A stretch of 64,000 nucleotides of DNA from a virus (Duplodnaviria; Caudoviricetes). Shown here in pieces: positions 37,421 to 37,531 of this stretch. Numbering within the stretch: position 1 is the first letter of the stretch; each line of letters opens with the position of its first letter. Under the pieces are notes generated by a model that did not search any database, was not told the origin of the DNA, and was given only the letters and a program-made list of their open reading frames with translations. Position numbers and translations under genes: made by a program. The stretch is from positions 64,001 to 128,000 of IMG/VR virus record IMGVR_UViG_3300028805_000046; one strand, written 5' to 3'.

Positions 37421-37531
37421 ATTTGTAAAGGGACAAAATAGCACCACTCCGCTATTGACCGGGCTGCCACCCGGTCTTACCTTTATAAATACTATAGTAT
37501 TTGGCAGATACTTTTACATTTTAGGAGTGGT
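37421..37531 (+). promoter_or_regulatory. Kissing-loop/anti-SD leader RNA element, copy 2, with internal TATAAATA
   Basis: Loop ACCACTCC vs SD region GGAGTGGT; loop CTGCCA vs loop TGGCAG; box 37484-37491. Confidence 0.8.

Follow-up and report, generated by a model that had tools for sequence, protein, structure and literature searches.

A two-code RNA junction as a probable translational lock on homing endonuclease genes of a T4-like phage

The window analyzed here is a 64,000-nt stretch (positions 64,001 to 128,000 of the IMG/VR record IMGVR_UViG_3300028805_000046) of a phage contig of 184,671 bp, and coordinates refer to this window unless the genome is named. Three genes for homing endonucleases lie on its + strand, and each is preceded by a compact array of hairpins, numbered here as copies 1 to 3. 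The third of these genes interrupts nrdD, the halves of which are found at 40890-42440 and 43221-44651 with copy 3 and the HNH gene between them; the endonuclease open reading frame (ORF) and the second nrdD half share 13 nt. An additional TATAAATA motif occurs at 43158, within the 3' end of this endonuclease ORF. In the following list, SD denotes the Shine-Dalgarno stretch, anti-SD its complement in a hairpin loop, and P1 the closing stem of a three-way junction.

3804-3820 (+): copy 1 (divergent), hairpin A, with the anti-SD at 3807-3816
3827-3852 (+): copy 1, hairpin B, loop TTGCCG at 3837-3842
3857-3864 (+): copy 1, variant box TGTAAATA, occupying the place of the late promoter
3870-3885 (+): copy 1, hairpin C, loop CGGCAA
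3893-3902 (+): copy 1, SD stretch, target of a 10-bp anti-SD helix (-14.2 kcal/mol)
3905-4897 (+): copy 1 homing endonuclease gene, DUF7487, 330 aa, zinc-finger N-terminus (Pfam PF24308, E 1.4e-7)
37421-37431 (+): copy 2, 5' arm of P1, partner of 37480-37490 with one G-U pair
37437-37456 (+): copy 2, hairpin A, with the anti-SD loop at 37443-37450, the exact 8-nt complement of 37524-37531
37457-37476 (+): copy 2, hairpin B, with a G+C-rich stem of 7 bp and the kissing code CTGCCA in the loop at 37464-37469
37480-37490 (+): copy 2, 3' arm of P1, sharing positions with the late box
37484-37491 (+): copy 2, T4-type late promoter box TATAAATA, identified by sequence
37496-37512 (+): copy 2, hairpin C, with a loop at 37501-37507 that contains TGGCAG, the partner of loop B
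37524-37536 (+): copy 2, SD GGAGTGGT and start codon (37534-37536)
37534-38553 (+): copy 2 homing endonuclease gene, DUF7487, 339 aa (Pfam PF24308, E 7e-24; PHROG homing endonuclease families)
42448-42513 (+): copy 3, three-way junction, with P1 formed by 42448-42454 and 42507-42513
42457-42483 (+): copy 3, hairpin A, with the anti-SD at 42467-42474
42483-42503 (+): copy 3, hairpin B, loop at 42490-42496
42516-42523 (+): copy 3, late box TATAAATA
42528-42544 (+): copy 3, hairpin C, with the loop CCGGAAA at 42533-42539, a 7-nt complement of loop B
42558-42570 (+): copy 3, SD-like GGAAAGCA, an 8-nt complement of 42467-42474, and start codon (42568-42570)
42568-43233 (+): copy 3 HNH (Mob-like) homing endonuclease gene (phrog_655, E 3e-25)

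All parts that a preliminary description had named at these three sites were located in the sequence. In copy 2, the anti-SD pair is ACCACTCC/GGAGTGGT, with a computed duplex energy of -13.0 kcal/mol, and the kissing duplex between loops B and C is computed at -8.4 kcal/mol. The corresponding kissing and anti-SD pairs are TTTCCGG/CCGGAAA and TGCTTTCC/GGAAAGCA in copy 3, where the anti-SD duplex is computed at -10.5 kcal/mol, and TTGCCG/CGGCAA and CTTACTCC/GGAGTAAG in copy 1. The order of elements that had been described as common to the three copies does recur with different letters in each, but copy 1 departs from it in having neither a canonical late box nor P1. Copy 1 also lacks the GGACAGA core, and in its minimum-energy fold the 10-bp anti-SD helix displaces hairpin A. 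It is an intermediate form, with this nested helix on top of the kiss, and a relative of the other copies by design only. Its variant box TGTAAATA is not enriched in the genome (184,671-bp contig) and is doubtful as a functional late promoter. Around copy 3, a 9-nt complement links TAATTCATT (42438-42446) in the stop-codon region of the first nrdD part (nrdD-N) to AATGAATTA (42567-42575) at the start codon of the endonuclease gene, and these two stretches could form an outer helix that buries the AUG of copy 3 as well.

The junction found in copies 2 and 3 recurs in a family of at least 73 distinct sequences. These were collected by pattern scans of IMG/VR, metagenomes, and MAG contigs (23 viral, 70 metagenome, and 5 MAG stretches), with patterns based on the motifs that members have in common: the junction sequence GGACAGA, CTAAC (or CTTAC) downstream of hairpin B, and the box. 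Judging by record names, many of the samples are rumen-like, and some are from sludge and fermentation. In these sequences, P1 is followed by two junction bases and hairpin A (base pairs C-G, A-U, and G-U at its base), hairpin B comes directly after, and four junction bases (CUAA or CUUA) lead to the 3' arm of P1. Between this arm and the TATAAATA box are 0-20 nt, hairpin C begins a median of about 4 nt past the box, and the start codon region is found 12-32 nt (median about 20) past hairpin C, with an A-rich linker and the SD in between. This linker (TTAAATAAA, or ATAAAG..AAAA) is conserved in the family without a covarying partner and is possibly a ribosome standby or enhancer stretch.

A covariance model (R1) was built on P1, the GGACAGA core, hairpins A and B, and CTAAC, with the window copies and the box excluded. 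The model recovered copy 3 (42445-42513, 41.5 bits, E 6.7e-10) and copy 2 (37422-37486, 38.1 bits, E 7.2e-9) and left copy 1 unmatched. Copies 2 and 3 are members of the family, since they match R1 and also have the box, a hairpin C, and the cognate complements downstream. Furthermore, R1 located a fourth copy in this phage at 183525-183585 of the genome. This copy, of the type II topology described below, is positioned immediately 3' of a tRNA-Ser gene and 5' of a gene for a zinc-finger and DUF559 (Vsr-like) nuclease, and its loop pairs are TTCCCG/CGGGAA and TTTCTCC/GGAGAAA. Fourteen members were reached via the model or via protein, and not via a TATAAATA pattern, and in 12 of them the box closely follows P1 on the 3' side. 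Two related phage contigs of 248 and 189 kb have three module copies each, and their codes are all different.

The earlier proposal that the module is not a described RNA family agrees with the Rfam searches, in which the modules had no match at the gathering score across the window, at E up to 1 for five member loci, or at E up to 10 for copy 2. The modules were not recognized by the Rfam covariance model for C4 (RF01695) either, whether E was allowed up to 1 or up to 10. In cultured-phage records, DNA searches for near and for distant relatives were negative for the locus as well as for the module. The literature searched yielded no specific account of homing endonucleases controlled by kissing or loop-loop contacts, and an unnamed entry in a catalogue of more than 10,000 structured viral RNAs is conceivable (PMC10690425).

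Several members deviate from the common layout. In L123 (+903), L178 (+7626), and L236, the junction and late box are followed by neither a recognizable hairpin C nor an endonuclease ORF, and these modules are likely remnants after gene loss. In L226 (124-260), loop B (TTGTGGT) complements a single-stranded ACCACAA past the box where no hairpin C stem is found, which would make this locus a loop-to-strand pseudoknot variant of the kiss. In L032 and L237, the junction strand and 3' arm of P1 (TTACCTTTT, CCTCT) complement the SD region and loop B does not; the 3' arm of P1 might alternate between its 5' arm and the SD in these two members.

Two topologies occur in the family. In type I, to which all three window copies belong, the SD is the partner of loop A, and loop C is that of loop B; in type II, the roles are exchanged, such that loop A pairs with loop C and loop B with the SD. 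The long-range pairings of type II cross and could therefore be satisfied only by loop docking on pre-formed hairpins. This role swap suggests that the two loops are interchangeable addresses displayed on a junction scaffold, and that the pairings are loop dockings and not a different nested fold. The distance from the end of a same-strand ORF to a type I module is 0-21 nt, and type II modules start a few nt past a tRNA gene in large phage tRNA clusters. Because the modules trail the upstream ORF or tRNA gene so closely, read-through RNA is plausible. Type II modules have an A+T-rich hairpin B with no T-run behind it. The phage tRNA clusters that bear type II modules also include tRNAs with the anticodons UUA (which would read UAA) and UCA (which would read UGA), found at L143:6505-6579 and L158:2274-2343 (-). 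These may be suppressor tRNAs, a possible hint of stop-codon recoding in these phages.

Both loop pairings covary, as the preliminary description had maintained. In the viral contig L001, which carries a 68%-identical orthologue of the copy-2 gene behind the same architecture, the kiss is changed from CTGCCA/TGGCAG to CTGACA/TGTCAG and the anti-SD pair from ACCACTCC/GGAGTGGT to TTAGCTCC/GGAGCTAA. Different letters are again found in the pairings of the 42%-identical relative L002, and single compensatory double changes distinguish near-identical modules (L148 vs. L168 and L126 vs. L130, among others). For copy 3, a search of viral contigs with the HNH protein gave no relatives, and consequently this copy has no orthologue test.

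The same pattern is seen across the family. In an alignment of the 5' module from 42 sequences, 95.1% of the cells are paired compared to 69.5% after shuffling, and covarying pairs make up 5/6 of P1 and 7/7 of hairpin B. For the whole structure in 30 type II sequences, the paired proportion is 97.4% compared to 75.9% in shuffled controls (0/500 shuffles as high), and sliding the partner by 1-3 columns lowers the pairing to 28-45%. In the loop-loop helix of these 30 sequences, all six pairs vary on both sides and 100% of the cells are paired. The type I loops were not placed in one register by MAFFT, since a full-length alignment lost hairpin C and another was split between registers; type I was therefore measured by per-sequence complement lengths and partner shuffles. 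In each of the 25 type I rows, a single register gives 6-9 pairs, compared to about 2-3 for the other registers. The 52 distinct members have 29 different 5'-loop codes, each complementary to its own loop C. Among these members, the kissing complement averages 6.23 nt for cognate and 2.83 nt for non-cognate partners and the start-region complement averages 6.15 and 3.91 nt, respectively; neither cognate value was reached in 2000 partner shuffles. In some members, the start-region complement is only 2-5 nt. All but one of the 61 fully parsed members have a loop-loop complement of 6-7 nt, the exception being a case of 4 nt in which the parser misread hairpin C. Watson-Crick complementarity of the two loops is maintained via compensatory change, and the pairings are as well supported as comparative analysis permits. 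The apparent invariance of the hairpin A stem in the 30- and 42-sequence alignments was rejected as an artifact of the search pattern, because the tighter collection pattern fixes this stem. It covaries in members found via the model or via protein, and other, compensated stems are present in L209, L004, L226, L237, L239, and the fourth copy in the genome.

The box associated with these modules is consistent with late transcription in this phage. A gp55-like late sigma factor is encoded in the genome (phrog_234, E 3e-8). The motif TATAAATA occurs 24 times on the + (coding) strand of the contig and three times on the - strand, and 19 of the 24 + strand boxes are located within 100 nt upstream of an ORF start, compared to 3.1 for random sites. 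At T4 late promoters, RNA starts a few nt past the box. With a start of this type, the late RNA would begin at the foot of hairpin C and contain hairpin C and the ribosome-binding site (RBS) without the junction. The preliminary description had put the late box between the inhibitory half and the target half of the structure, and this placement was borne out, with the box ending about 4 nt 5' of hairpin C (4 nt in copy 2). Under ordinary folding of the presumed late RNA, the probability that the SD is unpaired is 0.18 in copy 2 and 0.41 in copy 3. The SD would thus be partly paired, and the notion that it is free in late RNA is not clean.

The genes downstream of the modules are diverse. The lock had been placed ahead of all three full-length mobile endonuclease genes, but not every endonuclease gene of the phage has it, as a module is found at only about four of the eight endonuclease-like genes of the 184.7-kb contig. 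It had also been assigned to two unrelated nuclease families; at least four are represented across the RNA family. The downstream genes encode DUF7487 proteins, DUF7487-DNA methylase fusions, zinc-finger DUF559 proteins, HNH Mob-like proteins, and GIY-YIG/NUMOD3 proteins. Thirteen DUF7487 relatives found by protein search have a complete N-terminus. A clear module precedes four of these (L209, L210, L215, and L216), a partial module without box or hairpin C precedes L212, four have a late-type box (canonical in three) and a 5' hairpin only, and four have neither. The module is optional for endonuclease genes.

In L207, L211, and L222, the region about 100 nt ahead of the DUF7487 gene contains TATAAATA and, behind it, a stable 5' hairpin, but no junction. 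Late box and 5' hairpin may represent the basic cassette, to which the junction was added later. Zinc-finger DUF559 endonuclease genes without a junction are also present in the tRNA cluster of this phage, beyond the window (genome 175384-176070 and 178950-179600), and the latter gene has a TATAAATA motif only 4 nt 5' of its ATG, within a split tRNA. In addition, the module is found ahead of genes for DUF7487 fused to an N6/N4 DNA methylase (about 590 aa; L010:8372-10156, L109:665-2434 on the - strand, and L200:6094-7836), where a nuclease-methylase fusion appears to be under control of the homing endonuclease type.

The module is probably a cis-acting translational lock on read-through RNA that late transcripts bypass, serving free-standing homing endonuclease genes. 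Where transcription continues from the upstream gene or tRNA into the module, P1 and hairpins A and B of the resulting RNA would fold into a three-way junction showing two loops. The first loop would kiss the loop of hairpin C through 6-7 Watson-Crick pairs, the second would pair with the SD and start-codon stretch, and the two together would act as a two-point clamp that hides the RBS. Since a predicted T4-type late promoter separates the junction from hairpin C, late transcripts would start at the base of hairpin C, be free of the junction, and hence be translatable. This model draws on the observed pairings (by covariation), the observed box position, and the presence of the late sigma factor; repression, its timing, and the start of the late RNA are deduced from these. 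Late-promoter bypass of RBS occlusion is a known class of control, and the device proposed to perform it here is a structurally new one with two codes, for which no catalogued counterpart was found.

In T-even phages, experiments have demonstrated an RBS hairpin with late-promoter bypass for I-TevI, and the same has been deduced for I-TevII, I-TevIII, segB, and mobE (PMC2988022). RBS-sequestering hairpins with an embedded late promoter have also been described for the T4 genes e and soc and for mobE of Aeh1 (PMC2988022). As in the phage analyzed here, the T-even hairpins are associated with free-standing or intron-borne endonucleases of T4-like phages, and T4 segB, like the type II modules, is located in a tRNA cluster (PMC2988022). 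The two also have in common that TATAAATA is placed such that only read-through RNA would have the inhibitory strand, and that the SD and start codon are the target. In the window, the SD and start codon have a covarying complement in an upstream strand that would be restricted to read-through RNA, and a late promoter box is found between this strand and the RBS at 37484 and 42516; copy 1 has only TGTAAATA in this place. However, the RBS of the T-even genes is contained in one continuous hairpin, whereas the predicted arrangement here is a three-way junction with a kissing complex and a loop-to-strand pseudoknot, and only copy 1 comes near a nested helix containing the RBS. Copy-specific codes and two permuted topologies further set the present modules apart from the T-even hairpins.

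The closest prior description is that of Dassa et al. (2009), which reports conserved 5'-UTR hairpins with TATAAATA ahead of Vsr-like and GIY-YIG endonucleases that lie in fractured genes from marine metagenomes (PMC2677866). As in the present phage, where nrdD is the interrupted gene, the endonucleases of that study are free-standing and divide host genes, and their ORFs run into the gene part that follows; the late box lies within the conserved structure, two conserved motifs are mutually complementary, and the hairpin is kept after endonuclease loss (PMC2677866). The structure in that study is an RNAfold-predicted hairpin, and its text speaks of no junction, loop-loop pairing, or covarying codes (PMC2677866). 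None of the contigs listed by the pattern scan bears a marine-survey name.

Loop-loop recognition and RBS-adjacent pseudoknots are also found in plasmids. In RNA I/RNA II of ColE1 and CopA/CopT of R1, loop-loop recognition of 6-7 nt sets specificity, and in the rep mRNAs of IncB and IncI-alpha, a hairpin loop pairs with a stretch beside the RBS to form a pseudoknot. Unlike the modules described here, these plasmid systems involve two separate transcripts, or activation and not repression. None of them is known to use a three-way junction for displaying the two loops in cis.

Several alternatives to a cis lock were considered. Simulated genomes yield about three kissing-type hairpin pairs per strand on their own, and a scan of the whole 184,671-bp contig found 7 to 11 such pairs per strand (loop-loop complement of at least 6 nt), which raises the question of chance complementarity, or of plain DNA repeats from a recently spread cassette. 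However, only three sites in this contig-wide scan add a flank complement of at least 8 nt to the kissing hairpin pair, and the composite motif is thus observed three times on the + strand with 0.08 expected per strand from 12 Markov-1 simulated genomes. Moreover, the 29 codes show compensatory changes and the stems covary despite differing sequences. The likelihood of a chance or repeat origin is next to nothing, and this reading is ruled out by the covariation. Antisense RNA from a facing late promoter was likewise rejected as having practically no prospect of being correct, with the reverse box TATTTATA found near only 1/73 members and near no window copy.

Another alternative has a precedent in c4 RNA (RF01695), a small, structured RNA in which two short, separate stretches are complementary to the ribosome-binding region and cover it. 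This RNA is processed, acts in trans, and controls an antirepressor operon, with no late-promoter bypass; in phages P1 and P7, this regulator is reported to be encoded ahead of its target within one operon (Citron and Schuster 1990, as cited in PMC8201110). Like c4, the present module is a structured RNA just upstream of its target in one transcription unit. The junction could thus be cut from, or terminate, the upstream transcript and persist as a stable small RNA that binds late endonuclease mRNAs via both loops and limits the nuclease. Such a trans-acting role is compatible with a cis lock, and copy-specific codes could hold each regulator to its own target, but it is rather unlikely as the explanation of the module. 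The codes do all differ within genomes (four in this phage and three each in the 248-kb and 189-kb contigs), although with 29 codes in the pool, drift alone predicts distinct codes per genome. Type II modules begin right behind tRNA genes, where processing enzymes cut, and modules without a downstream hairpin C or gene persist in L123, L178, and L236. Hairpin B of copy 2 with its T-rich tail has a terminator-like score, such that some upstream transcripts may end there, which would favor action in the manner of c4. A general terminator role of hairpin B was ruled out, because it is A+T-rich in type II. On the other side, the strict cis arrangement and fixed spacing are sufficient for the cis model, and the Rfam C4 model has no match on the modules. 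The terminator-like hairpin B of copy 2 may also be taken to indicate an element for RNA stability, processing, or insulation, in which a nuclease site, a protective fold, or upstream termination would spare the neighboring genes from the inserted one. Late box and 5' hairpin without a junction in L207, L211, and L222 point in the same direction, suggesting that hairpin C may first of all be a 5' stabilizer. Nevertheless, this explanation is improbable, for it leaves the covariation of the second loop with the SD and start codon of each gene unexplained and is at odds with the A+T-rich hairpin B of type II, which has no T-run after it.

With a cis lock as the preferred reading, a textbook phage principle, in which the RBS is silenced on early RNA and a late promoter provides a bypass, would be extended from a simple hairpin to a designed-looking tertiary device, in which a three-way junction grips its target at two points by means of short, rewritable codes. 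The unusually clean covariation makes the module a candidate new RNA family and a target for structural study of junction-presented double docking. A single portable, probably regulatory cassette is common to unrelated selfish nucleases (DUF7487, Vsr-like DUF559, HNH, GIY-YIG, and nuclease-methylase fusions), with implications for the tolerance of homing endonucleases within tRNA clusters and in essential genes like nrdD. A logic of two codes is akin to that of synthetic riboregulators and could be adapted to build orthogonal translational gates. A bolder and less likely possibility is that these modules constitute natural, modular, and programmable RNA addresses, with independently rewritable and position-swapping codes, an orthogonal gate for each nuclease gene, and a junction that is also active in trans like c4. 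If this were true, the codes would be selected against cross-reactivity between co-resident or co-infecting elements, and the cassette would be a portable control unit moving among four or more nuclease families.

Finally, a second structured RNA is found in the window, at 54916-55022 (+), as a full-length match to the Rfam cow-rumen-2 RNA (RF02947) with 87.8 bits against a gathering score of 66. This match puts an orphan rumen RNA into a T4-like phage genome.
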